Shown here: positions 1 to 22,262 of the stretch, piece by piece
Layout of the letters: each line of letters starts with the position of its first letter
Numbering within the stretch: the first letter of the stretch is position 1
From: a virus
Lineage: Duplodnaviria > Heunggongvirae > Uroviricota > Caudoviricetes
Length of the DNA: 25,906 nucleotides
IMG/VR virus record: IMGVR_UViG_2740892258_000020
Strand: one strand, 5' to 3'
Program-made: the position numbers and the translations under genes
The notes under the pieces: model-generated
What the model was told of the DNA's origin: nothing
What the model saw: the letters and a program-made list of their open reading frames with translations, nothing else
The model's database searches: none

Positions 1-774
1 TCAATCTGTCAATGCAACACCCCTTTCAACTGCAAGCCCCCAGGTAAAGCAGTCATGCCCGCGCCCCGCCAGCGCCCCGGATTTGTACGCCTCAAGCGTT
101 ACATCAGCCGGGATGGTGGTTTCGCCGTATTCTTTGCGCAGCAGTTCGATAGATTCAGCGATCAGCGCGTCGGTCAGGTCGCGTGAGCAAAACAGGTATT
201 TCACGCCACCATAAACACGGTGGAAGCCCGTAATGTTGTATTCGTAAATGTCCTCCATTGAGTTAACGCTACCTTCCTCAAACTTGTCTGTAATCGCTTC
301 TACAGCCTCTTTGGTTGGGCCATCCGTCCACGAAACATAGAGCGCGTTATAGTCACGCATACGGACAGAAAACTTCACTCCGGGGAAATGCTTTTTCAGC
401 AGAATACGGATGTTTTTAGCGGCTAGCTTGGTGGTGTTGCTTTCGGTGGCCGTGGTCAGCAATCCGGCGTTTTCCGGGTCAGCGCTGGCGCGTTCGTTCG
501 CCAGCTGGCGGGCATCTTCTTTCGCCTGGTGTCTCGCTTCGCGCTGGTCGGTCACACTCTGCACAACCTGACGGCGGGCGCGGAGTTCATCGAGTGGAAG
601 GGTCTTATCGATCACCTGGTAAAAGCGCAGGGAAGTTTCCAGCAGCGGGGCGCAGGTTGGGGCATTCAGGCCGAGGATGGTATAGCTGATTTTGCCGTCA
701 GCCAGATTAACCGCGCTTACTACATACTCGTTTTTAAAAGAGGTGAGGCACTGGCCGACAGTTAAAGTAGTCAT
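1..774 (-). CDS. hypothetical protein (257 aa) in GC-rich flank outside the prophage structural module
   Basis: ORF 1..813 on minus strand; start most likely the internal ATG at 774..772, which has AGGAGT 7 nt upstream (the ORF-track start at 813 is a GTG). Stop at 1..3. No domain recognised. Confidence 0.55.
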
Positions 775-857
775 GATGTTACTCCTGATAATCGCCGCTT
801 TGGGCTGTGTCACCGGGCGGCGGTATTGCCTCCCGATGAATTAAGTATCGCTCTTTT

Positions 858-1218: not shown

Positions 1219-1617
1219 ATGTACGGAACATGCGAAACGCTATGCCGGGAGCTGGCAGCAAAGTATCCGGGAGACGCGCCGCTGATGCTGGTTATCTGGT
1301 CCCCGGAAGAAATTCAGGCCCTCGCTGACGGAATGGATATTTCCCTGTCCGATCATGAAATCAGGACTGTCCTGGCGCGCCTGGAGGACATCCCGGAAGA
1401 CCAGCGGACTGAATCCGGTATTTCTTCCGGTGCGGCGATGGAGATCATCAATAACGTGAGAGAAAACCGCCAGGTGACCGTCCCTGCTGAACTGCTGGCG
1501 TCCCTGATTCAGACCGCCGAACAGGCACTGTGGAAACGTGAGTGGGCCGCCCGTGTGTACCACGGTGTATCTGTAATTTTAAATAACTCTCCCTGGATAA
1601 AATCTTCAGAAGCATAA
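1219..1617 (+). CDS. hypothetical protein (132 aa); C-terminus probably altered by the rearrangement junction near 1567
   Basis: ATG at 1219 preceded by GAAGGAGACGAGA (GGAG-type RBS). The ORF-track start at 952 lies inside the IS1 fragment in a different frame from insB. GC-rich coding sequence switches to AT-rich after ~1567. Confidence 0.5.
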   Translation: MYGTCETLCRELAAKYPGDAPLMLVIWSPEEIQALADGMDISLSDHEIRTVLARLEDIPEDQRTESGISSGAAMEIINNVRENRQVTVPAELLASLIQTAEQALWKREWAARVYHGVSVILNNSPWIKSSEA

Positions 1618-2408
1618 AAAAGAGGCTGGCCCGGTATTCTCTCAAATAAAAAACGAGCATTTTTAAATCGACTGACATCCGGAAGAGTTGATACTTTAAA
1701 AGTAAGCCCTAATCCGTCAATTTTATAACCTGGAGATGAGGCTTCAAGGCACGCGCTTATTGCAGTGGAATCGTCATTTATACCATCACCAACAGCTCCA
1801 AAATCTTTGGGGCTAATAGCATCACGCATTTTATCCTGGAACGTTCGGTACACAGCCCCAGAACCATACTGAATAAACCAACCAAAACCACCAACAACCC
1901 CGGAGATTGCAGCATCGACATAATTACGCATTGAGCGATTATTTACAGCGTCCTGCTCAAATGATGGATCTGCAAGGTTAGAAATTTTGTTTTGCTTTGC
2001 ATCGTAATATTTTGCAAGCAAAGATGGTTTCATCAATGCACGTCTGAACCACCCAAAACATTGCTGGATCAGCATCGTCAGGTAGTCAAAGGCATCTTCA
2101 TGCACTTCGGGGAAAAATTTTCCCTGATTGCGAAGGTCTGTCTCCTGCACTACATCAAGCACACGATCTATCGTAATTCGCCATCCAGTAGCAAGCGGAG
2201 ACGGAAGAACCACAGAACCGCCACTATAAGTGCCCGCCCCAGTTACCGTATAACCGGTATCCAGAACCAATTCTGTTACGTTTCCGTTCAGGTCAGACAC
2301 CTGAACAACCAGGTCTGATTTTCTGAAAACTCGAAAAGTATACGGAAACGATGTCGTAACGCCGTTACCGGTGTATTCGTTGTGGTCAACTTCGGTTGAG
2401 ACCGTCAT
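1509..2408 (-). pseudogene. truncated tail fiber/tailspike: N-terminal virion-attachment domain plus the start of a pectate-lyase-like beta-helix (depolymerase) domain; genuine sequence ends near residue 280 (~1567)
   Basis: N-terminus MTVSTEVDHNEYTGNGVTTSFPYTF...DLVVQV is the recurring podovirus tailspike N-terminal pattern; PKDFGAVGDGINDDSTAI is a typical start of a right-handed beta-helix depolymerase domain. Only ~90 residues of that domain are present before the ORF runs into unrelated GC-rich sequence. GGAG RBS 8 nt upstream of the ATG. Confidence 0.6.
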
Positions 2409-2461
2409 GTTAAATCTCCAGATAGTCGCAGCACCCGTTGCGCCGCATATCTGGTTATTCT

Positions 2462-2483
2462 ATTACCTGGAAAACCACATATG
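2462..2483. promoter_or_regulatory. conserved 22-bp element ATTACC-N5-AACCACATATG, copy 1, upstream of the tailspike gene
   Basis: ATTACCTGGAAAACCACATATG here and ATTACCAATTTAACCACATATG at 22241..22262; both lie 30-75 bp upstream of a minus-strand late gene start. Confidence 0.45.
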
Positions 2484-2511
2484 GATAGAAAGGCTGTAAA
2501 TACGAATAGAT

Positions 2512-2527
2512 ATTACCTTTCAGGTAA
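2512..2527. promoter_or_regulatory. operator-like palindrome ATTACC-TTTCA-GGTAA, site 1, in the tailspike / 85-aa gene divergent region
   Basis: Inverted repeat TTACC-N5-GGTAA; one of five copies in the window, all intergenic. Confidence 0.55.
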
Positions 2528-2564
2528 TTTGCAAAACGTGCTGGATAGCAAACAAATTATTTGC

Positions 2565-2584
2565 TACTGTATAAATATACAGTT
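2565..2584 (+). promoter_or_regulatory. LexA (SOS) box immediately upstream of the 85-aa gene
   Basis: TACTGTATAAATATACAGTT matches the E. coli LexA consensus TACTGTATATATATACAGTA at 18 of 20 positions with the CTGT-N8-ACAG core intact; it ends 20 nt before the ATG and overlaps the likely -10 region. Confidence 0.7.
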
Positions 2585-2603
2585 ATTGCATGGAGAAGAT
2601 AAG

Positions 2604-2861
2604 ATGCAGCAGTATCACTATCCACTGGAAGACGGATTTACCGAAAGGATTCACACGCCGGGAGGCGTCAGGTCACTGGTGGAGGGATCGCACTTGATGA
2701 AATTACTCCGGGATCTCGATAAGGATGGATTTAATGTCGATGGCCCACTTGCCGAACTGACTGCACTGATTAACTACGTCACCAGCTCACAGATGTCTAT
2801 GCAGGATCTGCAAACACATCTCGACTATTGTGCCGAACAATTACGAAAACAAACCCGGTAA
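2604..2861 (+). CDS. small protein (85 aa) that is a standalone copy of the Bro-N antirepressor C-terminal domain; predicted SOS-inducible
   Basis: ATG at 2604 with GGAG 9 nt upstream (ORF-track start at 2481 is an unlikely extension). Residues ~15-75 (IHTPGGVRSLVEGSHLMKLLRDLDKDGFNVDGPLAELT...DLQTHLDY) align with the C-terminus of the 4247..4942 protein (IHSPSGVLGLTENSLLMNLLNQLQEDGHDVSGAAAELT...DIQTHAEY). Confidence 0.6.
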   Translation: MQQYHYPLEDGFTERIHTPGGVRSLVEGSHLMKLLRDLDKDGFNVDGPLAELTALINYVTSSQMSMQDLQTHLDYCAEQLRKQTR

Positions 2862-2868
2862 ATTTAAA

Positions 2869-2884
2869 GGCCGCAAGAGCGGCC
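2869..2884. terminator. shared hairpin GGCCGC-AAGA-GCGGCC between convergent genes; U-tract on the minus-strand side
   Basis: Perfect 6-bp GC stem directly after the stop of the minus-strand toxin-like gene and 8 nt after the stop of the 85-aa gene; followed on the minus strand by TTTAAATTT. Confidence 0.45.
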
Positions 2885-2885
2885 A

Positions 2886-3392
2886 TTAACAGTCGTAAAA
2901 TTCCGGGTCCCACAAACTTGCATCGCGCGGCATGGATTCTAAATTTTTCAGCCGCAAAATTCTGTCACACTCGACAAGAAGTTTTTGTTTTTGTTCGTCA
3001 ATTTCTACTTTTTTGTGTGCTGGCTCATCCCAGTAATCCAGAAGAAACGCATGTCGCTCAGACGTTACAAGATAAATCACATACACATCACTGGTTGGTA
3101 TTTTTTTATGCTTGTTGGTGGTCTTGTCTTTCTTCCCGGATGCCCAGTTTTTCCAGCATTGTTCCGTACCGCTCTCACCAAACTTGTCAGTATAGTTTCC
3201 GATGTTTACGTGAACGTGGCGTATGTGATATTCCAGCATCTCTTTCGGTGGATCCCGAAACAGAGTGTCCTTTCCGAAATCCTTATGATGACCGTAGCGC
3301 CAGTGATCTATGAACGCGTTTTTGATAGGTATTAGCTCAGGGTCCTTCCCAAAAATTCCAGGGTGAACCAACCCCTGGAATTTATTCAGCAT
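2886..3392 (-). CDS. YafO-family toxin-like protein (168 aa), probable mRNA-interferase type toxin
   Basis: Motifs resembling E. coli YafO as I recall it: PGIFGKD (YafO PDIFGRD), HVHVNIGNYTDKF (YafO IHLANENNPF), VYVIYLVTSERHAFLLDYWDEPAHKK (YafO HLVYCQGAFDEQAWLLIAILKPEPHK), plus a Lys-rich insertion. Start at ATG 3392..3390 with AGGAG 10 nt upstream; it overlaps the stop of the upstream gene by 11 nt. The ORF-track start at 3497 would give an implausible Arg/Ser/Cys-rich N-terminus. Confidence 0.5.
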   Translation of the reverse strand: MLNKFQGLVHPGIFGKDPELIPIKNAFIDHWRYGHHKDFGKDTLFRDPPKEMLEYHIRHVHVNIGNYTDKFGESGTEQCWKNWASGKKDKTTNKHKKIPTSDVYVIYLVTSERHAFLLDYWDEPAHKKVEIDEQKQKLLVECDRILRLKNLESMPRDASLWDPEFYDC

Positions 3393-3801
3393 CGTCGTAG
3401 AGCTCCTGAGCCATATCTTCGGCAGTGCGTGCAAACATCCTGCGCGAGATTGCATGAGATTTCTCGACGGACATCTTTGGGACCTCATGCATAACATTTT
3501 TGGGAGTTGTGTAATAGCCTATTACAATTTTCACACCTGACTTATGATTAATATCAGCATAATATACTTCTTGTTCAGACGTTTCACGACGAACATAATC
3601 TGCCAGTTTTCCACATTTAAATTCCCCTCCCTGATGTTTTAAAATCTCCTCAACTGCACTATTTTCAGTGAAATACCGAATAAGAAATTTCTGTCCAGAC
3701 TCTTCAGCATGAGGTATAACAGTATTATTGGAAGCCCGAACAATGGCCTTACTCAATATTTCATGGTCTTTATTTTTTTCTGATTTCCTCAAATGCTGCA
3801 T
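3382..3801 (-). CDS. unknown 139-aa protein translationally coupled to the toxin-like gene; candidate antitoxin or sensor partner
   Basis: ATG at 3801 with GAGAG upstream (ORF-track start at 3837 is TTG). Its stop lies inside the first codons of the downstream gene. Does not resemble YafN/Phd-type or RelB/RHH antitoxins that I can recognise. AT-rich. Confidence 0.6.
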   Translation of the reverse strand: MQHLRKSEKNKDHEILSKAIVRASNNTVIPHAEESGQKFLIRYFTENSAVEEILKHQGGEFKCGKLADYVRRETSEQEVYYADINHKSGVKIVIGYYTTPKNVMHEVPKMSVEKSHAISRRMFARTAEDMAQELYDDAE

Positions 3802-3933
3802 TACTGTAGCTCTCTTCGTGTTCACGGGCACCCCCAACTACCTCTAGGGTAAACATTCTATCGAAAGTATACGCATACTGGCAAAAAAATAGGCAGGTAT
3901 TTTCTGAAATGGGATCAATCAAACCACATAGGG

Positions 3934-3977
3934 TTGAAATAACGTGAGTTATGCATTTATTATTACCTTTGCGGTAA
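3934..3977 (+). promoter_or_regulatory. sigma70-like promoter (TTGAAA-17/18-TATTAT) overlapped at the -10/+1 region by operator palindrome site 2 (ATTACC-TTTGC-GGTAA, 3962..3977)
   Basis: Good -35 and -10 hexamers with correct spacing; palindrome begins inside the -10. Points toward the Bro-N gene. Confidence 0.5.
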
Positions 3978-4069
3978 ATTTACATCGCACTCCTCTTGTG
4001 CCATAGTAATCGGGCACTGGAAAAATCCAGTGCCGGGATTGGCGTCCCGGATTACTAAAAGGCGCATTC

Positions 4070-4090
4070 ACCGCGCAAGCGGTTTTTTTA
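4070..4090 (+). terminator. intrinsic terminator-like hairpin (CCGC-GCAA-GCGG with GNRA loop, then 7 T) inside the 5-prime leader of the Bro-N gene
   Basis: ACCGCGCAAGCGGTTTTTTTAT about 100 nt downstream of the promoter and about 155 nt upstream of the Bro-N ATG; preceded by two further stem-loops (4011..4036 and 4034..4050). Confidence 0.4.
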
Positions 4091-4246
4091 TGCGTATAGC
4101 ACGGCCACATTCGTATTATGGTGGGCTGTGTGGGGGCACCGAAAGGTGCGCCGGGTCCTTTTAGCCGGTTACGCCAACCCTGCACAGTTCACCACCAACC
4201 GATTGGCGTCGGTAGTGGTGATTAACCAGACTAAAAGGTAACCACT

Positions 4247-4942
4247 ATGACAGCTACAAAAAGCACGTCCATTTTTTCTTTCGAATCCCAAGCCGATATA
4301 CGGGTAATCGTCATTAATGGTGAGCCATGGTTTATCGCTTCAGATGTTTGTCGGGCTATAGGCATAGCAAATCATCGAGATGCTGTTCGAAAACTTGATG
4401 ATGATGAGAAGGGCGTCGCTTCAACCGACACCCCTGGCGGTGAGCAAGAATCGATCATCATCTCCGAGTCAGGCCTCTACACACTGATCCTCCGCTGCCG
4501 CGACGCAGTGACACCAGGCACTATCCCCTACCGCTTTCGTAAATGGGTTACAGGTGAGGTTCTTCCTCAGATCCGCCGCACCGGAAGTTACATTAAAAAC
4601 TCGCTCCCGCAGGAAGAACGCATAAAGATGGTTGCCGACCAGGTAGCCAACGCCACAGCATCAGCAGTGATGCAGGCAATGAAGATAGAGAACAAAACCT
4701 ACAGTGCCCCACTGAAGCCCGGCTACCGCAGCCTGATTCATTCGCCGTCTGGTGTTCTCGGCCTGACGGAGAACTCACTGCTGATGAATCTGCTGAACCA
4801 GTTACAGGAAGACGGGCACGACGTATCGGGCGCGGCGGCGGAGCTGACCACCATGTTCTGCTACATCGTCGGTGTGAGCAAGTGCCTGCGTGATATCCAG
4901 ACGCACGCGGAGTACATCAACGACAAGGCTGGGTTCTTCTGA
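4247..4942 (+). CDS. Bro-N domain phage antirepressor-like protein (231 aa) with a C-terminal domain shared with the 85-aa protein
   Basis: N-terminus FSFESQADIRVIVINGEPWFIASDVCRAIGIANHRDAVRKLDDDEK...ESGLYTLILRCRDAVTPGTIPYRFRKWVTGEVLPQIRRTG is the canonical Bro-N (phage antirepressor N-terminal) signature. Confidence 0.8.
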   Translation: MTATKSTSIFSFESQADIRVIVINGEPWFIASDVCRAIGIANHRDAVRKLDDDEKGVASTDTPGGEQESIIISESGLYTLILRCRDAVTPGTIPYRFRKWVTGEVLPQIRRTGSYIKNSLPQEERIKMVADQVANATASAVMQAMKIENKTYSAPLKPGYRSLIHSPSGVLGLTENSLLMNLLNQLQEDGHDVSGAAAELTTMFCYIVGVSKCLRDIQTHAEYINDKAGFF

Positions 4943-4979: not shown

Positions 4980-5023
4980 TTGGCGATGTGATGTAGATTC
5001 GCGTAATATTACCTTACGGGTAA
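4980..5023 (+). promoter_or_regulatory. sigma70-like promoter (TTGGCG-18-TAATAT) overlapped by operator palindrome site 3 (ATTACC-TTACG-GGTAA, 5008..5023)
   Basis: Same promoter/operator geometry as at 3934..3977; about 60 nt upstream of the 210-aa gene. Confidence 0.45.
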
Positions 5024-5082: not shown

Positions 5083-5715
5083 ATGAAAACAAATACAACA
5101 AGAAAAGCGATGCCATACATTATCCCAGAAGCAGATTTCGACAGAAAACTGAACATGTCTGAGAAGAACACTAGTCACACCGAAAGCTACTTAGCGAAAG
5201 GTGTGGTTGATTTCGTTCTTCCGGGATTCACAACACCTTATGGTTATCGCCTTGTAAAATCTTGTAATGGCGATCATTACAGAATGATTACTACCAGCGA
5301 TACTCCAGAAACGGTGTATGCGGTTAAGTTAATCTTTCGGGAAGATATCGTCGAAGCTAAAAGAACATGTACGCAGATCATGGTATGGCGTACGCCTAAT
5401 GTTATTCATGACCGTGCTGTTCATGGTTTGCCTCAGATTTTTTTTCAGTTCTTCCTAGAGCAATATGCGATCGTTGTATCTGATGAGCAACAAACAATCG
5501 ATGGGAGAAGATTCTGGGAAAGAATGATTTCTTGGGCTATAAACACCCCGGGATATAATGTATACGTTTCAGATGGCTCTGAAGAAGATAGACCTCTTAG
5601 CTTCATGACATCATGGGATGATTTCTATAGCCAGTGGGCTGATTTCTGTTGGGGCAGTGATAAAGATGTGCATACCCACAGACTACTGGTTATAAGCAAA
5701 GATAAACTGCATTAA
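5083..5715 (+). CDS. hypothetical cargo protein (210 aa), monocistronic
   Basis: ATG with GGGAGGA RBS 5 nt upstream; followed by a strong intrinsic terminator; AT-rich; no recognisable motif. Confidence 0.7.
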   Translation: MKTNTTRKAMPYIIPEADFDRKLNMSEKNTSHTESYLAKGVVDFVLPGFTTPYGYRLVKSCNGDHYRMITTSDTPETVYAVKLIFREDIVEAKRTCTQIMVWRTPNVIHDRAVHGLPQIFFQFFLEQYAIVVSDEQQTIDGRRFWERMISWAINTPGYNVYVSDGSEEDRPLSFMTSWDDFYSQWADFCWGSDKDVHTHRLLVISKDKLH

Positions 5716-6857: not shown

Positions 6858-9800
6858 CTATTTCATCTGCTCTTCAACTTTATTTAGTAACGGTGATATT
6901 GCCCACAGGTTCTGAAAAGGTAGCATTTTACGGACCGCGTGGGTTTGCTGGCTGTCAAATTCTCCGTTAAGTACACCATTCGCAACCGTCGCGGCATCAC
7001 CGCCAAGATCAAAGGTAGGACCAAGTAAAGCACCAATAGCATTACGACTCTGAAACCTTGATACCGGAGGCGCACCAAACATCGCGCCAAGACCAAACCT
7101 ACCGCCGCTTATGTTCTCAACGGTATTCAGCGGCTCAGAGAGCCAGCCAAGCATTCCGCCCCGGTCGATCCCCTCTTTCACAAGGTTATTCCAGCTGTAG
7201 TCAATATCGCGACCGCTTAACTTCTGTTTCATCATATAGACCATTGAGCCAAGCGCAATCGTGCCAAGCGCACCAAGATAGAATGCAGCATCGCCCTGCT
7301 GGATACCAGATACCAGCACCCTGTTATGCTGTGCGAAGATAAACGTTTTGAACTGCGTGATCATCTTCCAGCCTTCTTTACTAAAAAACAGCGGTGTATC
7401 ACCTACGCCAGGCGTTACAATCACTGAGTCTACATCTTTCAGCACTGCAGACTGGAAAATCTCTCTAGCGAAACGGTCATCCCACAGATGACTATGCCCG
7501 GTTAACAGCCCGTCCATATCCTCTCCGTGCTTCCCGAATTGCTCCCCGATTCGGCGCAGAACATCTTCATTGATGCCGACCTGTGCCATCTTCCGCATTT
7601 CACTTTTGGAGAGCGTGCCACCAGCAGAAACTTGGCGAGCCGCGTCAAGTATCCTCGACTGCACTATCATCCCGGACCATGATTTAAGTGCGCTGTTCCA
7701 CTGATTCATCAGCGTCCAGTTACCGAATTTCTGCGTCATCCAGTTCAGGCCTCGCTCAGCGGCGCTTCTCCGGCTATATGGGTCAGTAAGATCCGCTATA
7801 GCCTTTGTACGCGTAGACAGGACATAATCAAGCCCAACGGCCATTTCTCGCAAATCCCTGGTTGCAATTTTCACTGAGTCCATATTTTTAAGCATGCTTA
7901 CCATTGGTCCGAGAGATTTTCTCAGGCCATGCTGCATCATCGGTCGCATCAGATCAGTTGCAGCGGAGACAGTCATTCCACCAAGCAAACGGAGGAAGTT
8001 AATATTCCTAGCAACTCGCCCGGCACGAACAAAGAAACTGCGTGGATCTTGAGGTGCACCGTAAGTACCAAGCAGTCGATCACGCATAGCCGTAATATCC
8101 CTAATATCAGCCTCCCGTTGCTTCTCAAGAACTGCACGTCGTTTAGGCGTTTTAGCCTCTTTTATTAGCCGGGTATATTCCTCACTAACCTGACGGATTT
8201 GCTCCCCCATATCTTTACGGCCAAACTGCGCAGTCAGCTCAATTTCTGGTGCCACCTGCCGGAGATAACTTTCCATGATGTAGTTAACATCTGATTCAAG
8301 AAAATCTTCTATACGCTCATCAGGAATAAGCAGCGTTCTGCTTTTAGTGAAACCAGCCCGACCAACGAGTCTCTCTGGGATAATATCGGCTGGTACAAGC
8401 CCGGAAGGTGCACCTATTATTTTATTCACGATCTCGTCAGCAGCGTCCTCTGCTTCCTCTCGGGATAGAGGCTCCATCTGCTTCAGTGCTCGTTCGCGGC
8501 TTGCATTCAGCCTTGTGGTTGAATTTGCCCGTTTTTGCAGTCGGCGAAGCTCAGAACGATATTTCCGTGGATTATCCAGCAACTCCATATGGCGCTGATA
8601 GACAGGAAGCTCACTCTTTGCCTGCGCTATATCATCAAGGCGTGTTTTAAGGTCAGAGCTTTCTTTCATCATTCTTGCCTGAAGTTTTTCTGATGAAGTC
8701 TCGGCCAACTCTTTTTCTATTCTTGTAAGACGCGCCTGTGTGTCAGTCTCCTGAGATATAAGCTTATTTCGTTTATCCAGTTCTTCCATGAGTAGAATTT
8801 TTTTACCAGACCATTTCTCCGCTTCAGCGATTTCACTAGCGAGAGCATCAGCGCGCGGTGCCGATTCCTCTGCAGTTTTTAGCAATGAATTTATCCTTTC
8901 AATTCGCTGACCTGCCTTGTCAGCACCTTTGGCACTAATCCCTTGTATCCAGTTGGCAATTCGCCCTCTGAATTCAGTGCGGTCGGAAAGTATCTTATCG
9001 AACTTATAAATGCGGGGAAGATAACTTTTCGCCGTCACGACATCGATATCCTCAGGAAGGATCCCCAGTTCCTGCATACGGGCTTTTGTGGTCTCGAAAA
9101 TGGGGCGGATTCTGGCAGCTGCTTGTGAAACCTCAGGAATATCACTCTGATCACCACGGCGCATAGCCATGCCAACAGCTTCATTGAAATCAATAAAGTT
9201 CATCCTCTTCACGCCGCGGGCGCTAACAGATTTGCTGTACTGCTGGTAAGCATCACGAGTGGCTTCCATCTGCTTATAAAGCATGGCGTCGTATTGCTTA
9301 ATCTTAGTCTCGACTGCCGTAAACGTAGCCAACCCCTCATCATTTTTGGCGAAGAAATAGTTATTTTCGGCAAGCTGCTGGTTAATCTGACGGGAGACAA
9401 GAGATGGTGATTGCGCCAAGCGGCCAGCAGGAGTGACACTCAACGTTTTGTTAGCAAGTCCAAGTCCAGCGAGCTGTTCCTGATCGAGTGTGGTATTGAA
9501 AACCTGAGCTGCACCAATGCTTTGAGGAGAATCCATACCTCGCAAATGATTACCTACTGAGTTAACCACTGCCTCGCGCGCGCCAGGTCCAGCAAGTAGC
9601 TGTGCACCAGCACCAAGGATCCCACCAACGAGAGCATCAACAACAACGTTCGATACGCTCTCCATCGGTGAGCGAGCTTCCTGAGTGGCCTGTAATGCGG
9701 CCTCTGAAGCAACACTGCCAGCAGCATTCGCCAGGGCAAAACGCCCGGCTGTTTCTGCAATACGACCGCCACGAACGACAGCGCCGAACGGAATAAACAT

Positions 9801-10247
9801 AGAAATCGCATTGAATGGATCTGCTAATCTCATTGCTACAGAAGAGACTGTACCAGCAAATCCCAAGCCTGAATTGTATTCCATGTCAGCTCTCTGCTGA
9901 TCGATTCGATGTTTAATTGCCATTGTTTCTTCAGGCGAACCGGAGTTGATAAACGAATCTGCAAAATCTTCATAGCCTTTAATATCTGCTGCATCGTTAT
10001 CAAATGGGTTATATCCTTCAACCCTGTCAAACTGACTGAAAGGAGCACTGGCAATAAAGCTACCCAGCGTGTTATCTATACGAAATGCTGCTTGTCTAGA
10101 CCTTTGAACGCGTTGATCACTGGTAAATGGGTTCACAGCAGAAAGCAAAGAAGGTGTTTCCATATAGAAATTACTGTCATCAGGTGCTGCTATTTGCTGA
10201 ATATCCTCGCCAAGCAACTCTTTAGGATCCTGTTCATATATCGGCAT
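6858..10247 (-). CDS. large internal virion / DNA ejection protein (1129 aa), T7 gp16-position analogue
   Basis: Last and largest gene of the tube/core gene run; long coiled-coil-like central region (KTAEESAPRADALASEIAEAEK...); start overlaps the upstream gene stop. Assignment by position and size. Confidence 0.55.
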   Translation of the reverse strand: MPIYEQDPKELLGEDIQQIAAPDDSNFYMETPSLLSAVNPFTSDQRVQRSRQAAFRIDNTLGSFIASAPFSQFDRVEGYNPFDNDAADIKGYEDFADSFINSGSPEETMAIKHRIDQQRADMEYNSGLGFAGTVSSVAMRLADPFNAISMFIPFGAVVRGGRIAETAGRFALANAAGSVASEAALQATQEARSPMESVSNVVVDALVGGILGAGAQLLAGPGAREAVVNSVGNHLRGMDSPQSIGAAQVFNTTLDQEQLAGLGLANKTLSVTPAGRLAQSPSLVSRQINQQLAENNYFFAKNDEGLATFTAVETKIKQYDAMLYKQMEATRDAYQQYSKSVSARGVKRMNFIDFNEAVGMAMRRGDQSDIPEVSQAAARIRPIFETTKARMQELGILPEDIDVVTAKSYLPRIYKFDKILSDRTEFRGRIANWIQGISAKGADKAGQRIERINSLLKTAEESAPRADALASEIAEAEKWSGKKILLMEELDKRNKLISQETDTQARLTRIEKELAETSSEKLQARMMKESSDLKTRLDDIAQAKSELPVYQRHMELLDNPRKYRSELRRLQKRANSTTRLNASRERALKQMEPLSREEAEDAADEIVNKIIGAPSGLVPADIIPERLVGRAGFTKSRTLLIPDERIEDFLESDVNYIMESYLRQVAPEIELTAQFGRKDMGEQIRQVSEEYTRLIKEAKTPKRRAVLEKQREADIRDITAMRDRLLGTYGAPQDPRSFFVRAGRVARNINFLRLLGGMTVSAATDLMRPMMQHGLRKSLGPMVSMLKNMDSVKIATRDLREMAVGLDYVLSTRTKAIADLTDPYSRRSAAERGLNWMTQKFGNWTLMNQWNSALKSWSGMIVQSRILDAARQVSAGGTLSKSEMRKMAQVGINEDVLRRIGEQFGKHGEDMDGLLTGHSHLWDDRFAREIFQSAVLKDVDSVIVTPGVGDTPLFFSKEGWKMITQFKTFIFAQHNRVLVSGIQQGDAAFYLGALGTIALGSMVYMMKQKLSGRDIDYSWNNLVKEGIDRGGMLGWLSEPLNTVENISGGRFGLGAMFGAPPVSRFQSRNAIGALLGPTFDLGGDAATVANGVLNGEFDSQQTHAVRKMLPFQNLWAISPLLNKVEEQMK

Positions 10248-12994
10248 TATTTGCCCCCTGCGTATATATTGCTCGGAAGGTAATTGGCTGAACCATAACC
10301 GAATGGTTTGGTCAGATCTGGAGGAGTATATCCATCTTTATTGCTGAACTGCGGCAGCGGATTGCCTTCTCTCCGCACTCTAGCCTCATCAACACGCTGT
10401 TGCTGGAACTGAATGGTTTGCCTGTACATTGGAGATGTCAGCTGATCCGGCTTGAAACGAACAGGGAGACCATTTTCTCCAATATAATTTCTCGGTTCTA
10501 TCGCTCCGTTTGCGTCAGGCTGTAAAACCATAACAGCATAACTCCTATCCCTTGCCGTAAGGCCATCAGAAACAAGTATTAAGTCCGTATCACTGCGAGG
10601 ACCGCCAAAGGATTTTGATTTAAGCTCGCGTTTTTCCTGCTCCCACTGCCCCTGTATCCAGTTACCAGCACCATTATTTACTCCGTACAATGCCTCAGGT
10701 GCATACTTCATAACCTCTGCTTTGCCATTAACTGTAGAAACTCCCCAGGTGGTTCTGATCATGGCATTGGTCATTTTCTCAGCCTGTTCTGCATCGCCAC
10801 CTGTCTGTACAAAGTTAGCATCGTAAATTGTCTGGTAATCTCGCTGATAGGCCGCATTTGATTTTCCTGGATCGGTAATATCCGGAGACCACGAACCAAA
10901 GGAAGTCAGACTGCTGGCGTTATTTTGTGCAGCAGTTGCCCTCGCCGCGACATATTTTTTGTCTCGCATGGCAGTGGAAAGCATCTGTTTCATTCGGTCA
11001 TCCTGTTGGAACACCTGGCTGTAAGCCATATCAACAGCCTTATCCTCCGGCACGCCAGCGCGGGAATAATCGTAAACCTTGCCGTAAAATGCCATCGTAC
11101 TTTTATCAAGTGTTGCCGCTGCCGCCGGATTATTATCAAATAACTGACCGTAGAATTTTGCCATCGGGACAACCAGCGCAGGATCTCTTGATGTTGCTCC
11201 ACTGTTAAGCATTGTTTTAACCTGAGTTGGTATCATGCCGCTTTTAGTTGTGACGGTGACCAGTGTATTGATGCTCTGCGGATCAGATATGGAAAACGAA
11301 GGCGCGATATCCTGCGCGAAATAACGGTCTACCGCTGCCTGATTGTTTTTGTCGTTCGGGTCCAGCGGGAAGTTATTTTGCATTGAAGACACGAACCTGT
11401 TTCTTCCCTGCTGAATCTCCCACTCCCTATCCATCTCTTTAAATTTGGCCTGCATTTTCTCCCAGCGTTGCTGGTTAGCTGCAAATCCAGGAGCGTTTGG
11501 ATCCTGTGGACGTAAACGTTCAAGAATGTCTTGTCGTCCTTCTGGAGTGAGGTCTTTAGCGGCACCAATGACACCTCCATATTGTATCTGCGCCTGCATA
11601 TCCTTCCACTTCATAGCGCCAATGCGCGGACCATTGGCCCGGATAAAATCGTCCTCAGAAGGTAACTTCTCAGGTTTCAATCCTTCATCAAGGGCTGAAT
11701 ATGCATCTTTAACTACGGTGCTAAGCTGGTCCGCATACTGCTGGCGGTACTGATTTCTCAGCTCATTAGCCTGCCTCAATGCCTGTATTTGCATTTGAGG
11801 GCTCATAGCGTCAAATGCCGCATTGCCCGTATAACGCTTAGGTGAATCAAGGTTAGTTAGACCAAGGGATGCCGAGATACCAGTTTCAAGCTGTTCGGTG
11901 CTATAAGGCATACTGCCATTTTCGTGTTTAATAATCCCAGCACATAAAGCAGCTAGTGTCTTTGGGTTAGAGATATCAAGCTGATCATTCTCCCCAACAC
12001 CAAGCTCACTACACAATGCCCTAATATAAGCATCAGTATTATTACCATCACTAGCCGGAGCATAGCGATTAACAATCTCGCTAACGGTGTCATAGCCTTG
12101 ACGCTGGTAAGACAACATATTTTTACCCAACGCGCGGATTCCATGCTCAGGGGTAGCAAACGTTGCAAAACGTCCATCGCTACCGATCTGACCTTCCCAC
12201 GGGTTAGATTTGCTCGCTTCAATATTACCAGGGTTATTATTACGTAAACCACGAGCATCCAATGAATTACCATGTGATATTGCACGACTCACACCATCAA
12301 GATCCCCTGGCTCTCCATTAACCTGAAGAAACTCGTTGTATTTTTGAGCGATATTTCCTATCCATGCTTGCTGCCCCATTTGTTCCTTGAGCTGAGTTTT
12401 CTGCTGAACACGCCACCCATCAGGAAGCCCATGTGCATCAGCGTATTGATCAATAGATTCAAATCGCTGCTTGGCTAAATCGACAAATGCTTGGTTATCG
12501 CTATATAGCCCCGCAGACTGAGTGACAGCCAATGCATTTCCTGACAAATACGTTTGATCTTGGAATTGCTGAAACTGCCCAACTTCATATCGACGTGCCT
12601 GATTGTAATAAGACTGCATAGACTGCTGGAGTTGAAAGGATAATTTATTCCTTTCCTCACTTTCAGGAATTGAGCCTAATAATGCCTGAGCCCTTTCCTG
12701 CATATTTTTCATAACAGCGTCACTCTGACCAAGAGCGTTTTTACCCTGTTTAGAAATCAGCCCATTTTCAGGGTTGTTAATCTGGTCATCTGCAAATTGG
12801 TTAAATTGCAGTAACGCCTCCTGAGCCATAGCAACATTCGCTTTCTGCCTGGCTTCACCATATGCCACCGCATACTGATCTGCGACATTCGCCAGCACCT
12901 GACCTGCTTGAGGAACATCGAAGGTCTGAAAACCACCGGTTTGCACACCACGACTTTGCACCTGGCGTCCGGATGTAGTAGGAACAACTGGCAT
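10247..12994 (-). CDS. internal virion protein (915 aa), T7 gp15-position analogue; contains a conserved-looking block (LRNNNPGNIEASKSNPWEGQ...FATFATPEHGIRALGKN) that may be a cell-wall-interacting domain
   Basis: Position and size in the ejection-protein run; Gln/Asn-rich. Domain call is tentative recollection only. Confidence 0.5.
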   Translation of the reverse strand: MPVVPTTSGRQVQSRGVQTGGFQTFDVPQAGQVLANVADQYAVAYGEARQKANVAMAQEALLQFNQFADDQINNPENGLISKQGKNALGQSDAVMKNMQERAQALLGSIPESEERNKLSFQLQQSMQSYYNQARRYEVGQFQQFQDQTYLSGNALAVTQSAGLYSDNQAFVDLAKQRFESIDQYADAHGLPDGWRVQQKTQLKEQMGQQAWIGNIAQKYNEFLQVNGEPGDLDGVSRAISHGNSLDARGLRNNNPGNIEASKSNPWEGQIGSDGRFATFATPEHGIRALGKNMLSYQRQGYDTVSEIVNRYAPASDGNNTDAYIRALCSELGVGENDQLDISNPKTLAALCAGIIKHENGSMPYSTEQLETGISASLGLTNLDSPKRYTGNAAFDAMSPQMQIQALRQANELRNQYRQQYADQLSTVVKDAYSALDEGLKPEKLPSEDDFIRANGPRIGAMKWKDMQAQIQYGGVIGAAKDLTPEGRQDILERLRPQDPNAPGFAANQQRWEKMQAKFKEMDREWEIQQGRNRFVSSMQNNFPLDPNDKNNQAAVDRYFAQDIAPSFSISDPQSINTLVTVTTKSGMIPTQVKTMLNSGATSRDPALVVPMAKFYGQLFDNNPAAAATLDKSTMAFYGKVYDYSRAGVPEDKAVDMAYSQVFQQDDRMKQMLSTAMRDKKYVAARATAAQNNASSLTSFGSWSPDITDPGKSNAAYQRDYQTIYDANFVQTGGDAEQAEKMTNAMIRTTWGVSTVNGKAEVMKYAPEALYGVNNGAGNWIQGQWEQEKRELKSKSFGGPRSDTDLILVSDGLTARDRSYAVMVLQPDANGAIEPRNYIGENGLPVRFKPDQLTSPMYRQTIQFQQQRVDEARVRREGNPLPQFSNKDGYTPPDLTKPFGYGSANYLPSNIYAGGK

Positions 12995-13572
12995 CAGTAA
13001 CCTCCTATTTTGAATCGGGAGTCAGAATTCATAAAACCTGAGTTAGATAACATTGGCGTCCCACCACTAGATGTACTTCCTTTAGAGAACGGACTCCACG
13101 TTCCGCCGCCCAACTTATATGCACCGTATGCTTTTAGTGGTGCTGTTAACAAAGTGCTGGTCATCGATGATTTAGCAGCCGACTGAGCAGCAGCCCCCTG
13201 TGCCTGAGCATTCATTCCCTGAACCTGATACCCATATGCCTCACGCTGAGCATTATTCACTGTCGTTAACGCATCAAGAGTGCCGAACTGAGCATTATCC
13301 GCAAAAACGTCAAGAGCTGTTCCGCTACTTAATTCCGCACCGGTAGCCCCCATAGTGGCCGCCGCAGTGCCTGAGCGTTGACGCATTTCACGACGACGCT
13401 GATCTGCTTCAATATTCCCACGATTGATTGAATCCTGTGCCTGAGCTTCAGCAATTTCAGCATTCCGATCAGCTATGGCTGACTGGTATTTTGCCTGCTT
13501 GCTCTGGCTGTACATTGACGCGGCTGTGGATGCCACTGTGACGGCAACCAAAGCGATGGCTGGGTTACACAT
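12994..13572 (-). CDS. internal virion protein (192 aa) with hydrophobic N-terminal segment, T7 gp14-position analogue
   Basis: MCNPAIALVAVTVASTAASMY hydrophobic N-terminus, Ala/Gln/Gly-rich body, size close to T7 gp14 (196 aa), correct position. Confidence 0.45.
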   Translation of the reverse strand: MCNPAIALVAVTVASTAASMYSQSKQAKYQSAIADRNAEIAEAQAQDSINRGNIEADQRRREMRQRSGTAAATMGATGAELSSGTALDVFADNAQFGTLDALTTVNNAQREAYGYQVQGMNAQAQGAAAQSAAKSSMTSTLLTAPLKAYGAYKLGGGTWSPFSKGSTSSGGTPMLSNSGFMNSDSRFKIGGY

Positions 13573-14036
13573 TATTTTCTCTCCATGTGAAATCTGTGGA
13601 AATTAAGACCAATAGCACCATAAGGCGCGGCTTCTTCAAGCCTGAATCCAAGCCAGTGCAGCCATGCTTTGGCAACATGGTTTCGCTCGTCGACGTAGTT
13701 TTCCAGGCGCGGATAAACTGCCAGCATCTGCTGCAATACAGGGCGGCAGTGGCGCAGAAATGTCTTCTGATATTTTTCAATACGGCTGGTCCCGACCAGC
13801 CAGGGCGTACCATTGCCACCGATCATTGACGCCGGAGATACGCCAAACATGGTTACCAGTTCTCCGTTCGCGAACCCTGACCAGGCCATAGTCGCAGTAC
13901 GCAGACCAACACGCAGCGCATCTTCGGTAGTCATCAGTGATACCGCATACAGTTCGTCAATATCAGCCTGACGAACATCCGGCAAAATCATCTGAAGATG
14001 CTCTTCGGTTGCGGGAATAATTTGAACATCGATCAT
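13572..14036 (-). CDS. small virion-associated protein (154 aa), T7 gp13-position analogue
   Basis: Position between the tail-tubular-B-like and gp14-like genes with 1-nt overlaps on both sides; no motif confidently recognised. Confidence 0.35.
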   Translation of the reverse strand: MIDVQIIPATEEHLQMILPDVRQADIDELYAVSLMTTEDALRVGLRTATMAWSGFANGELVTMFGVSPASMIGGNGTPWLVGTSRIEKYQKTFLRHCRPVLQQMLAVYPRLENYVDERNHVAKAWLHWLGFRLEEAAPYGAIGLNFHRFHMERK

Positions 14037-16507
14037 CAGAATCCCCCAACAGTAAGGCGAGGAATAACGGCAAGAACAGACAGCGGCAACGGATCAAGCT
14101 GACGGATTTTTACACGTCCGTTTTTGCCCCAGTTACTGTCCAGTTTCACTTCTACTTTTCCGGTAGCATCATCAACAGGATCATCGTAGAACTCGAATTC
14201 ACGCTGTGGATATTCGTACCATTTACCGCCGGGCGTAGTCGCCCAGATGCCGCGACTGGCATTCACAACCAGAGTAACGGAGGGGATCACCTGTTTTTTG
14301 TCCAGCAGCGTTTCCTGTCCGTTAATGTTGATATCCAGTGTTTCGAATTCAGCAGTTATTGGCAGGCCGATGTGCACTACAGCCCCCGGAGATTCCAGCG
14401 TGACGGCACCTCCGGAAACCACTTTCTGTGGTTCCACGTTCGCATCAGAGAGAATGTTTACGGTCTGGCCTTCAAGATGAGACAGGCCTCCAAATGTCCG
14501 GCGCGCCATCTGCCAGTTCGTGGTGGCCACATTCCTGAGGGATGGCGGGACGTTCCTGTTAGCACGAACCACTACAGCGGTATTGCTGGTTACAGAAATA
14601 ATGTCGCAACGTAATTCTTTTGACACTTCATCGCCAGTATCAGGATCAGTTCCGGTATAAGGGAACTGTAGTTGCGCGCCGACATCACTACTGGTGAAGT
14701 ACGCACCACCAGAAACACTGATTGTATATTCCGCACGGTAATCCCATTCACCAGAACCACCAGTGATGGTCATCGTTCTGTCAGACGTATTTCTTCCATC
14801 ATAGCTAAGGCCAGAATCAACAAAGAAAGCATCTTCATCGCTGGTAAATAAACGGCTGGACAGTCGCTCGATGTATCTCACTGTTTGCCCGTTAACGGTT
14901 CGGTTAATGACGAAATACACCGCATCTTCATTGCCTTCGCTGATACTGCATGTGCTTTCATATTTTCCGGTACTGGACTGTGGTGCCCATGCAAAAACCT
15001 GTTGATCACGCAAATAGGTCATCACCAGTAATTTACCGTCATCACGAATGCAGAAGGCGCTGGAGTAAGGGACAATAGAGAAGCACCAGTCAACAATGCT
15101 GTGCTTCTGAAAAAGATGATTGGCAAGGATAGTAAGGTCGTTCCCCTGATAGCCGTCAACATCGAATGAGTAGGCCAGATCACGGACAACACTGCCTTTC
15201 TCCTGGACGAACAGAGCAATATTCGCCACGGCAATTGGTGGGACATTGCTCGAACCATTTGATCCCTGAGAGCTGAATGCAAATGATGATGGAGTTAATA
15301 CTTTGTTCTGGTCGCCGGTGATGACGTACTCACCTCCGGAAGTCAGTGCCACCAGCGAACCGACATCAATCAGGTGGCGGATCTCATTAACCTGACGCCC
15401 GGCATAGGTGTAGATAATTCTGTCGTCATCCTGCGTAGGATTGCTTTTGCCAAAATCCTTATAATCCCCAGTACGGCTGGCCCAGATAGTCTGAGGGAAC
15501 GCTGTCGATGCGGCGAAGTAAAGACGTTGTTGATAATAAACAACCGTGCCAGGATAACCGTTAACACTGTTCCAGGCATATTTAGCCCATTTATAGCTGG
15601 CATTATCCTCGCCAACGACCTGCGAAGGGATATAGGAAATCACCTCAGCAGTTGCAGTAGTGCCATTTACAGCAGTTATACGGGCAATGCCAAAACCACT
15701 GTGCAGATACTCCCACTCAATGCCAGTATCATCATCACCGGATCCGCCCCAGCCATCCCATGATGTGCCTTCTGTATGCGAAGGGCGCAAAGTGCCTGTT
15801 TTGCCTGCTGTAACGGCGCGATAGTAGTTACTGTCTGCACGGCGAATATCGCCAATCGACGTACTCTTACTGGTTTCCCATACCGGCACAGAATCCACTG
15901 CAGGCTGTTCCAGATAGAACAATTTGCCTACCTGCTCCGCGCCAAAAATAGAGGCGCTTGCCGTTAACGTAATTGTCCCGGTGCTGGCGCTGGCATAAAC
16001 CGTCACTGACTCATCAATATTGATATCTTCAAATGGCCCGTTCTTCGTTACCACATCAACCAGTTGCCAGTTGTCATGCGCATAGCGGCGCAGCTCTTTC
16101 GGCGGGTATGCCGGGTGAACCAGCGTAAGCACGTCGGCGCTTTGCGTGAATTTAATTCGGAACAGATCGGCTTCAGTATATGGCGTGGCAATTTCATAAA
16201 TAACATTGCTGCTGTTCAGCACCAACGCACCATCTTTGATAACGCGCATGTACTGGTGTCCGAACTCCAGAGCATAAGTCTGAACCGTCGAGAATTGGAA
16301 CGGGATCAGGCGGCATTTCCGATTTGGGTATTTGGCGGCACCGACAAAACGCGTACCAGGTCGATTCTCAACGCCGCCATACTGCCGCACGATAAAGTTA
16401 TCGCACTTGCGCAATGCTACCTGGTACTTCGCCATGTCAATACGCCCGTACAACGACGGTCCAATCTCACCACCGGCAAAGCTGGGCTGGATCCAACTGA
16501 TAGCCAT
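14036..16507 (-). CDS. tail tubular protein B-like (nozzle) protein (823 aa)
   Basis: Size and position match T7 gp12; N-terminus (PSFAGGEIGPSLYGRIDMAKY...GGVENRPGTRF) loosely resembles the gp12 N-terminus as I recall it. Confidence 0.5.
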   Translation of the reverse strand: MAISWIQPSFAGGEIGPSLYGRIDMAKYQVALRKCDNFIVRQYGGVENRPGTRFVGAAKYPNRKCRLIPFQFSTVQTYALEFGHQYMRVIKDGALVLNSSNVIYEIATPYTEADLFRIKFTQSADVLTLVHPAYPPKELRRYAHDNWQLVDVVTKNGPFEDINIDESVTVYASASTGTITLTASASIFGAEQVGKLFYLEQPAVDSVPVWETSKSTSIGDIRRADSNYYRAVTAGKTGTLRPSHTEGTSWDGWGGSGDDDTGIEWEYLHSGFGIARITAVNGTTATAEVISYIPSQVVGEDNASYKWAKYAWNSVNGYPGTVVYYQQRLYFAASTAFPQTIWASRTGDYKDFGKSNPTQDDDRIIYTYAGRQVNEIRHLIDVGSLVALTSGGEYVITGDQNKVLTPSSFAFSSQGSNGSSNVPPIAVANIALFVQEKGSVVRDLAYSFDVDGYQGNDLTILANHLFQKHSIVDWCFSIVPYSSAFCIRDDGKLLVMTYLRDQQVFAWAPQSSTGKYESTCSISEGNEDAVYFVINRTVNGQTVRYIERLSSRLFTSDEDAFFVDSGLSYDGRNTSDRTMTITGGSGEWDYRAEYTISVSGGAYFTSSDVGAQLQFPYTGTDPDTGDEVSKELRCDIISVTSNTAVVVRANRNVPPSLRNVATTNWQMARRTFGGLSHLEGQTVNILSDANVEPQKVVSGGAVTLESPGAVVHIGLPITAEFETLDININGQETLLDKKQVIPSVTLVVNASRGIWATTPGGKWYEYPQREFEFYDDPVDDATGKVEVKLDSNWGKNGRVKIRQLDPLPLSVLAVIPRLTVGGF

Positions 16508-17115
16508 CAGGACAACCTCGCAATGGTAAACTCATCAACCGGTGGCTGTGGTTCCTGTGATTCATTCTGGCTATGCGAGCCAGCACTAAGAATCACGCGA
16601 TTGTACATATTGAGGGCAAACGTACCGAGGTCTGCATTCCCAGTCAGCGCCATGTTAATAGCTGCCGCAAGACGCCAGGCCAACGCCTCCATAAAAATGG
16701 CATCAAACATGTTCACATCTGTAACGCGAGAGACATACTTGAGCCATGCCTGAGGCTGGTCTGTGTAGATCAACTTTCCTGTTCCGTTGGTGTCTGCACC
16801 AACTTCGTACTGAACGCGCATTGCTGCTGTTGGATTGCGTACACCAGGAAGCATAATTTCAGTAATGCGCAGACAATCTGACGGGTACTGGTACGCATAT
16901 TCCCAGTCAGGCGGTGGATTGCTCGTATCTGCAAGCGCCACGCGTTTGGTAGCAAAGTTCCAGTCAAAATCAGAAAGCACAGCATCACGACAGGCCTCAA
17001 AGTGCAGCGAACATTCCCCCGCTTCCTTGCTGGCTTCCGTCAGGCTGTTAATGCTGCGGCTGTTGCCAATATTGGACAGCGCACGATTACAGATCTCTAC
17101 TACAGAGGCCATCAC
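16507..17115 (-). CDS. tail tubular protein A-like (adaptor) protein (202 aa)
   Basis: Size and position match T7 gp11 (196 aa), immediately upstream of the gp12-like gene with overlapping stop/start. Confidence 0.45.
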   Translation of the reverse strand: MMASVVEICNRALSNIGNSRSINSLTEASKEAGECSLHFEACRDAVLSDFDWNFATKRVALADTSNPPPDWEYAYQYPSDCLRITEIMLPGVRNPTAAMRVQYEVGADTNGTGKLIYTDQPQAWLKYVSRVTDVNMFDAIFMEALAWRLAAAINMALTGNADLGTFALNMYNRVILSAGSHSQNESQEPQPPVDEFTIARLS

Positions 17116-17441: not shown

Positions 17442-17485
17442 TCCTGCAATAAAGGGGCCGAAGCCCCTTGTCTGATCCGCGAGGC

Positions 17486-17830: not shown

Positions 17831-17831
17831 C

Positions 17832-18269: not shown

Positions 18270-18320
18270 CTTCTTTCTCCATTAGTGGGTCTGTTACGAC
18301 CCACAGGTTAATAACAGGCG

Positions 18321-19313: not shown

Positions 19314-19321
19314 TTCCTCTC

Positions 19322-21992: not shown

Positions 21993-22006
21993 TTCAATGA
22001 CTCCGG

Positions 22007-22213: not shown

Positions 22214-22240
22214 ATCAATGACTCCGTACGCAATTAAATT

Positions 22241-22262
22241 ATTACCAATTTAACCACATATG
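22241..22262. promoter_or_regulatory. conserved 22-bp element ATTACC-N5-AACCACATATG, copy 2, upstream of the portal operon
   Basis: ATTACCAATTTAACCACATATG; see copy 1 at 2462..2483. Confidence 0.45.

Follow-up and report, generated by a model that had tools for sequence, protein, structure and literature searches.

The closest described system to the locus considered here is that of phage SPC32H, in which the antirepressor Ant acts on the repressor Rep. According to a review that cites Kim & Ryu 2013, synthesis of Ant follows the self-cleavage of LexA, and Ant then inactivates Rep through direct contact between the two proteins (PMC7380047). Two other papers describe two Rep dimers bound per Ant tetramer, with the Rep tetramer broken (PMC9638917), and a Rep C-terminal domain through which Rep tetramerizes and also contacts Ant (PMC9986798); a 2025 preprint carries a similar statement on SPC32H Ant and Rep (bioRxiv 10.1101/2025.11.27.690993).

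Other phage antirepressor genes are found behind short RNA elements. In P1 immI, the gene order is c4-icd-ant. In Gifsy-1 it is isrK-orf45-anrP (PMC4825925). Overexpression of ORF4 of phage ZX5 reduced lysogens from 1e9 to 1e6 PFU/mL (PMC9782041).

We analyzed a stretch of viral DNA of 25,906 nucleotides ("the window") that carries genes related to both kinds of system. Our main reading, to which we give a probability of about 0.9, is that the small gene at 2604–2861 is ant and that, in a prophage of the epsilon15/phiV10 type (Uetakevirus), it encodes an antirepressor that works the lytic switch under SOS control and is orthologous to SPC32H Ant. The Ant system has already been described in this genetically and structurally characterized orthologue from the same phage genus, and the finding matters mainly for annotation: the family to which the 85-residue protein belongs, PHROG 450, is listed as being of "unknown function." What goes beyond annotation is the proposed wiring of two antirepressors, as read from the sequence.

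The ant gene and its LexA box

Gene order is the same in the window, phiV10, EC.W1-9, SPC32H and epsilon15: a tailspike gene, a divergent ant, and then the virion structural genes, with the tailspike on the minus strand, ant on the plus strand and the structural genes on the minus strand in the window as in SPC32H. Over positions 1552–4000 at least, the window matches a prophage of E. coli APEC O18 with 100% identity; the same prophage lies next to guaA in APEC O18, IHE3034 and other K1 strains, and window positions 6858–25906 hold the structural and packaging genes of this kind of prophage. The tailspike gene of the window, which encodes an endosialidase, is truncated at about 1552, where it is joined to plasmid-type DNA, and a search for a complete E. 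coli genome spanning this junction found none. The rep gene is absent from the window, the immunity region lying beyond its end. Given the missing rep and the cut tailspike joined to plasmid-type DNA, this copy of ant may belong to a prophage that is broken or has been misassembled.

The reading frame of ant runs on the plus strand from the ATG at 2604 to the stop ending at 2861 (85 codons), and is preceded by a Shine-Dalgarno sequence, GGAGA, at 2592–2596, 7 nt before the ATG, of which GGAG is invariant in nine phages. As the original prediction had it, the gene lies directly behind a LexA box, its start codon 20 nt past the box. When all PDB chains were searched with the 85-aa protein, a single match was returned, chain E of 5D50 ("Anti-repressor protein"; E = 4.1e-47, residues 2–84). 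Global alignment with SPC32H Ant, whose crystallized form has 86 residues, gave 75 identities over 86 positions (~87%), and tblastn gave 88% identity to SPC32H_020, named "ant: anti-repressor protein" in both SPC32H and SPC32N. Between the two genes there are 34 synonymous and 10 non-synonymous codon differences, and 41 of the 54 base differences fall at third positions, which shows that ant is a genuine coding sequence kept by purifying selection. In its homology and size, as in its LexA box and position, it agrees with an Ant of the SPC32H type.

Domain searches added little to this assignment. No Pfam family matched the 85-aa protein above its curated cut-off (a spurious DUF724 match fell below it), NCBIfam gave no match, and no Bro-N, AntA, Rha or KilA-N N-terminal domain was detected with Pfam or PHROG; against PHROG 1760 ("anti-repressor"), the protein matched just the C-terminal part of the profile (positions 177–225 of 232).

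A tblastn search of 50,697 phage records found Ant in 35, nearly all of them Uetakevirus-type (epsilon15/phiV10-like) podoviruses of Escherichia, Salmonella, Enterobacter and Klebsiella. Among complete E. coli genomes, ant and its upstream region are present in about 523 of 5,426 (~10%), including K1 ExPEC/APEC strains of the ST95 type, in which the prophage has an endosialidase tailspike; RefSeq labels the gene "hypothetical protein" in every row among the matches listed, and the ZX5 record likewise annotates it as hypothetical.

Downstream of ant, a scan for terminator-like structures reported, on the minus strand, a GC-rich hairpin (GGCCGCAAGAGCGGCC, 2869–2884) between ant and the convergent yafO-like gene; on the plus strand it lacks a following T-run, and whether it terminates ant transcription is doubtful. 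The neighboring ORF (2886–3497), which lies between the two antirepressor genes of the window, is called "YafO family toxin" by RefSeq, an assignment for which Pfam and NCBIfam searches with the 202-aa translation gave no confirmation.

The LexA box itself, TACTGTATAAATATACAGTT at 2565–2584, agrees with the consensus TACTGTATATATATACAGTA at 18 of 20 positions, both mismatches lying outside the CTG/CAG arms, and has a perfect CTGT-N8-ACAG core at 2567–2582. No other site with three or fewer mismatches occurs in the 25.9-kb window, where 0.01 would be expected by chance. Near the second antirepressor gene no LexA box was found, only GC-rich core matches with one mismatch (12 found, 9.2 expected). 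The predicted near-consensus box is borne out, and the arrangement of small gene and box that was to be sought in related prophages does recur: in an alignment of ant upstream regions, CTGT-N8-ACAG is kept in E. coli, Salmonella and Enterobacter phages, while in Klebsiella phages the left arm reads ATGT. Over 223 aligned nucleotides upstream of ant, SPC32H and its clear-plaque sibling SPC32N differ solely by a C to A change in the CAG arm of the box, at the base that aligns with window position 2580. Kim and Ryu reportedly found in 2013 that this SPC32N box mutation leads to constitutive Ant synthesis and that SPC32N is lytic.

The box probably overlaps the ant promoter, and its left arm, TACTGT (2565–2570), probably serves as the –10 hexamer. 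This is suggested by coliphage 186, whose record gives TACTGT, the left arm of the LexA box TACTGTATGTTTATACAGTA, as the –10 of the SOS promoter p95. By the same analogy, the candidate –35 hexamer of ant is TGGATA (2542–2547, plus strand), located 17 nt before TACTGT within CTGGA(T/A)A, which is invariant in nine phages. A scan for the sigma-70 consensus found no promoter match reaching 9/12 at the box, and the exact hexamers proposed here should be read as candidates.

A different reading of this region would make the real gene a 126-aa ORF starting at 2481, the longer form of the small gene in the program-made list of open reading frames, and the LexA-like palindrome a chance sequence inside it. 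The long form does appear in many automatic gene calls, and there are clusters of 126–127 aa, one of which has 833 members. Of the nine relatives compared, however, six have a stop in the upstream frame within 6–13 codons, and in Klebsiella phages indels break the frame; the Shine-Dalgarno sequence and ATG of the short form are conserved, the crystallized orthologue is of the short length, and a box of this quality is hardly expected by chance in the window. For the frame closures, the indels and the length of the orthologue, we rejected the 126-aa form as the gene and give this reading almost no weight.

Operator-like palindromes and the repressor partner

A perfect palindrome, ATTACCT-ttc-AGGTAAT (2512–2528), stands some 40 bp upstream from the LexA box, and its core, ATTACC-N5-GGTAA, is invariant in all nine aligned phages. 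Further upstream is a conserved half-site, TATTACCT (2461–2468, plus strand), inside a block, TTCTATTACC...AAACC.TATATG.AT, that is kept in each of the nine aligned Uetakevirus ant upstream regions. The half-site is over-represented, with five copies in the window (0.31 expected) and eight in SPC32H (0.69 expected); among the SPC32H copies, two lie between rep and cro, one lies upstream from int and one is at ant. The SPC32H rep-cro intergenic region also has the ATTACC-N5-GGTAA motif, at 34359 and 34446, similar TTACC-N5-GGTAA sites occur in the rep-cro region of the APEC O18 prophage, and the epsilon15 RefSeq record labels the equivalent ant-proximal site "protein_bind: repressor." From the motif shared with rep-cro and the epsilon15 label, it is probable that Rep has binding sites close to the promoters of ant and the tailspike gene as well, and the palindrome at 2512–2528 is a probable Rep operator. 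It could equally well serve the divergent promoter of the tailspike gene.

The likely partner of Ant can be examined in sister genomes. Rep of the APEC O18 prophage is a 194-aa helix-turn-helix (HTH) protein that matches chain A of 5D50 ("Repressor"; E = 4e-42) and shares 42% identity with SPC32H Rep. Both proteins have HTH domains and no peptidase S24 domain, which fits a repressor that is not cleaved. A Rep of the SPC32H family is also encoded in each of the 35 phage records with Ant, a one-to-one co-occurrence.

Taken together, these features suggest a switch of the following kind, in which LexA control and the Ant-Rep complex are carried over by analogy from the SPC32H literature. In the lysogen, host LexA would occupy the box at 2565–2584, overlapping the ant promoter, and keep ant off. 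Upon DNA damage, activated RecA would promote LexA self-cleavage and ant would be transcribed; the Ant tetramer would then bind the C-terminal domains of Rep, a two-HTH protein with no S24 autocleavage domain, splitting the Rep tetramer into dimers that would leave their operators, so that the lytic genes would be derepressed. If Rep also damps the ant intergenic region via the palindrome, positive feedback would set in once Ant appears. The original prediction of a DNA-damage-inducible, minimal antirepressor is thus supported, because SPC32H has an orthologue (~87% identical, and published) at the same position and the LexA box is conserved. From SPC32H, one would predict that SOS agents such as fluoroquinolones and mitomycin C induce these prophages by way of LexA and then Ant, instead of by cleavage of the repressor.

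What makes the transfer of the SPC32H mechanism most uncertain is the divergence of Rep set against the conservation of Ant, and binding between the two proteins of this lineage, although expected, is not guaranteed. The Salmonella phages share 84–88% Ant identity with the window lineage and 42% Rep identity, and the Ant-binding region crystallized from SPC32H (Rep 92–198) is 37% identical to the E. coli-type Rep; for the Enterobacter phages, the figures are 78–85% for Ant and 75–78% for Rep. Conservation of Ant and Rep thus appears to be decoupled between lineages: either the Reps, though divergent, have kept structural features that Ant recognizes, or E. coli phages pair the two proteins differently.

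Under the second option, the small Ant of the E. coli type would be mismatched to its Rep, the fusion protein described below, with its diverged C-terminal domain, would be the working antirepressor, and Ant would act chiefly in trans, on the repressors of other prophages, in a Gifsy-type cross-talk. A Rep C-terminal domain only 37% identical beside an Ant 87% identical between lineages is what such a mismatch would look like; overexpression of the fusion protein alone lowers lysogeny in ZX5 (PMC9782041), and cross-talk among antirepressors is documented in Salmonella (PMC7380047). Against this, the Enterobacter phages pair an Ant and a Rep that both resemble those of the window lineage, and one of the phages with Ant, BUCT554, has no gene for the fusion protein; the Enterobacter pairing suggests that Ant works with that type of Rep. 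In addition, the LexA box and the ant coding sequence are clearly constrained in the roughly one-tenth of complete E. coli genomes that carry them. We regard the mismatch as unlikely and favor E. coli Ant acting on the E. coli-type Rep as the mode of action.

A second antirepressor gene and the spread of the Ant domain

The second antirepressor gene of the window (4247–4942, plus strand) encodes a 231-aa protein with a Bro-N domain at residues 17–107 (Pfam, E = 2.3e-21) and an Ant-like C-terminal domain at about 148–229. Its start codon is 1643 nt from that of ant, in line with the 1.6 kb given originally. The likeness between the two proteins, which had been put at 40–45% by eye, came to 42% in a pairwise BLASTP alignment (31 of 74 positions without gaps, E = 8e-16; residues 2–75 of the small protein against 150–223 of the Bro-N protein). 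The C-terminus of the Bro-N protein also matches chain E of 5D50 (E = 1e-13, residues 150–226) and PHROG 450 (E = 4e-36), and the protein is a true paralogue of Ant. In a literature search that covered papers other than the primary SPC32H papers, none was found that links the Bro-N C-terminus to SPC32H Ant.

The second gene is present in phiV10, ZX5 (whose ORF4 is 100% identical to the window protein), EC.W1-9, Tyrion and some Klebsiella phages; in SPC32H, SPN1S and epsilon15, ant and its LexA box are present and the Bro-N gene is not, and BUCT554 lacks this gene as well. This distribution points to the small gene as the core gene and to the Bro-N fusion as an optional cassette. The description of the small gene as a standalone copy of the Bro-N protein's C-terminal domain accordingly holds for the similarity, while the implied direction of descent is probably the reverse, since the small gene is core and the fusion is absent from SPC32H and epsilon15.

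The original prediction also offered the small protein as a competitor that modulates the Bro-N protein. Stated fully, the small protein would act mainly on the Bro-N antirepressor, with mixed oligomers that titrate or activate the full-length protein. The identity between the two domains would allow this, as would the 20 alignment columns that are invariant between standalone and fused forms, and the SPC32H Ant domain is a tetramerization unit. The phages that carry ant and its LexA box without a Bro-N gene speak against it, however, as does the strict co-occurrence of Ant with Rep and not with the Bro-N gene, and according to two papers Ant suffices for induction in SPC32H (PMC7380047, PMC9638917). 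Because Ant functions in SPC32H without a Bro-N partner, the competitor is unnecessary, and we consider it quite improbable that the Bro-N protein is the main target, although mixed oligomers may form as an additional effect; inactivation of Rep by Ant remains our preferred account.

Control of the Bro-N gene appears to be of another kind. A promoter-like site, TTGAAA-18-TATTAT (10/12), lies at 3934–3963 on the plus strand, immediately upstream of an IsrK-type leader or small RNA with an intrinsic terminator (4014–4089, plus strand; Rfam RF01394, 76.7 bits against a gathering score of 50), within which a terminator-like stem at 4070–4083 is followed by a T-run; a sub-threshold Rfam match to c4-a1b1 covers 4001–4053. 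A second operator-like palindrome, ATTACC-N5-GGTAA (3962–3977), overlaps the –10 of the promoter-like site (element pair 3934–3978). Next comes a C4-type antisense RNA (4114–4199, plus strand; RF01695, 77.7 bits against a gathering score of 45), and the pair of IsrK and C4 elements recurs ahead of the second antirepressor gene in ZX5, phiV10, Tyrion and OXA245phi3.2. A 37-codon upstream ORF with a GTG start (4128–4241, plus strand) ends 5 nt before the Bro-N ATG; its equivalent is labeled "ash family protein" in the ZX5 record, and by position it would correspond to P1 icd and Gifsy-1 orf45. By these sequence elements, the region upstream of the Bro-N gene belongs with the P1 immI and Gifsy-1 isrK-like (IsrK-C4) modules. 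Both the placing of a Bro-N-fused Ant paralogue behind IsrK and C4 elements and the presence of a Rep-operator-like palindrome before each of the two antirepressor genes may be new.

The Ant domain is rare and mostly free-standing. A profile built from standalone and fused forms and searched against 1.84 billion cluster representatives matched only 60 proteins, most of them standalone and 80–95 aa long. In all ten of the longer matches that we examined, the Ant domain was C-terminal; eight of these had an N-terminal Bro-N, AntA, Phage_pRha or ORF6N domain, and two had no Pfam match there. This spread fits the known shuffling of domains among phage proteins of the antirepressor type, and the use of the Ant fold as a portable C-terminal module behind four different N-terminal domains may be a new observation.

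Tentatively, and with doubts that outweigh our confidence, one can go a step further and view the Ant fold as a portable module that binds the repressor C-terminal domain and tetramerizes, two versions of which this prophage has wired to different inputs: LexA (SOS) may control the small Ant, and the IsrK/C4 switch together with the operator-like palindrome may control the Bro-N fusion. The two versions could act on one and the same Rep domain, assemble together, or split Rep immunity types between them; this last arrangement would explain an Ant that is 87% identical across phages with 42%-identical Reps. Two antirepressors with a shared domain, one predicted to be under LexA and the other under RNA control, and both near Rep-operator-like sites, would offer a tractable model for how a repressor integrates multiple signals.

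Comparison with known antirepressor systems

With Tum of coliphage 186, the locus shares the regulatory logic of a small protein that is made from a LexA-repressed promoter and inactivates a non-cleavable repressor, as well as the geometry of the box, the TACTGTATGTTTATACAGTA box of 186 doubling as the –10 of p95. "Tum-like," the term used originally, is apt for this logic and not for descent: BLASTP of Ant against 186 Tum gave no homology (E = 0.061, 14 of 46 identities), Tum has a DinI-like part, and 186 is a P2-like myovirus with a repressor of another fold. The antirepressors of Gifsy-1, Gifsy-3 and Fels-2 are likewise SOS-controlled and small, target uncleavable repressors and can act across prophages, but they are reported as Tum-type and come from sipho- and myovirus prophages (PMC7380047).

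For the Bro-N gene alone, the closest likeness is to P1/P7 immI and Gifsy-1, with the same succession of promoter, IsrK/a1b1 terminator leader, C4-type RNA, short ORF and antirepressor. It differs from both in that the C-terminal domain of the antirepressor has the SPC32H Ant fold and in that an operator-like palindrome overlaps the –10. ZX5 ORF4 is the same protein, with a reported effect on lysogeny; the ZX5 study treats it as the only antirepressor and leaves LexA, SPC32H and the small gene unmentioned (PMC9782041).

The nearest relative of the system as a whole is SPC32H Ant/Rep (PDB 5D50, 5D4Z). The two loci share an Ant protein of high identity and essentially the same length, its position and the phage genus, the same distance from LexA box to start codon, an upstream operator-like palindrome and, in the sister genomes of the window, a Rep homologue. 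They differ in that the Rep of these sister genomes has diverged so far (only 42% identical) and in that the window tailspike is a truncated endosialidase; furthermore, the window lineage has added a Bro-N-fused paralogue of Ant under putative IsrK/C4 control and, between the two antirepressor genes, a YafO-family toxin cassette.

Immunity and control around ant

Ant (window 2604-2861) and the prophage repressor have diverged to very different extents in the E. coli and Salmonella phages: Ant identity is 87%, versus only 42% for Rep (coding regions compared: 20755-21339 in L006, an E. coli locus, and 33739-34335 in L004, the SPC32H locus) and 37% for the Ant-binding C-terminal region of Rep. 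In the Enterobacter phages, Ant identities of 78-85% are paired with Rep identities of 75-78%. Immunity type and Ant conservation are decoupled.

The probable Rep operator is a strongly over-represented palindrome, ATTACC-N5-GGTAA(T). In the window it lies upstream of ant (2512-2528), upstream of the IsrK/Bro-N unit (3962-3977), upstream of the ORF at 5083-5715 (5008-5023), and where the tRNA gene and the portal operon adjoin (22303-22318); in SPC32H it is found at 3184, 20022, 26958, 33602, 34359, 34446 and 35981, the copies at 34359 and 34446 falling in the rep-cro intergenic region of that phage. If the palindrome is indeed the Rep operator, the Rep regulon would extend beyond the immunity region. 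As for SOS control, the LexA box of the Klebsiella Uetakeviruses (L008, L009 and L013), about 35 nt upstream of ant, has ATGT rather than CTGT in its left arm (TATATGTATATATATACAGTA), and LexA control may be weaker or lost in this branch.

The Ant-like domain is also found as a C-terminal module behind four N-terminal domains, Bro-N, AntA, Phage_pRha and ORF6N (fusion proteins P0122, P0123, P0131, P0146 and P0174-P0176 from the profile search); in one of these, the Bro-N fusion P0146, the Ant-like domain lacks its first half.

Tailspike, left end and tRNA gene

The tailspike gene (window 1509-2408, minus strand; 3737-6856 in L005, an E. coli locus) encodes a head-binding region of the epsilon15 type at the N-terminus and, behind it, an endosialidase N-terminal extension (PF12218). 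The complete 1039-aa tailspike of APEC O18 and IHE3034 is an endosialidase, and the prophage is therefore a K1-capsule-specific Uetakevirus, carried in ST95-type ExPEC strains. In the window only the first 299 codons remain, meeting plasmid-type DNA at about 1552: the left end (1-1555) is plasmid leading-region DNA, with genes for an LPD29-domain protein (1-813, minus strand) and a DUF1380 protein. The junction is found in none of 5,426 complete E. coli genomes; it has arisen by rearrangement or is an assembly chimera. Flanked by the terminase region on one side and the portal region on the other is a tRNA gene (22641-22714; Rfam RF00005, 73.3 bits), the counterpart of the annotated tRNA-Arg in SPC32H and the APEC O18 prophage.

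From ant to the Bro-N antirepressor gene

The interval between ant and IsrK holds an insertion of two overlapping minus-strand ORFs (2886-3837), which APEC O18 and EC.W1-9 also have and phiV10 and ZX5 lack. In RefSeq the first ORF is labelled "type II toxin-antitoxin system YafO family toxin" and the second hypothetical; searches of Pfam and NCBIfam with our own translation did not confirm the YafO assignment. Chromosomal yafO is a member of the SOS-regulated dinB operon.

The Bro-N antirepressor gene lies directly 3' of an IsrK RNA (4014-4089; RF01394) and a C4 antisense RNA (4114-4199; RF01695), which are followed by a 37-codon upstream ORF (4128-4241). The IsrK and C4 pair also occurs in ZX5, phiV10, Tyrion and OXA245phi3.2; SPC32H lacks it. 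This segment (4001-4246) is a riboregulatory module like those of P1 immI and Gifsy-1 isrK, here in a Uetakevirus prophage.
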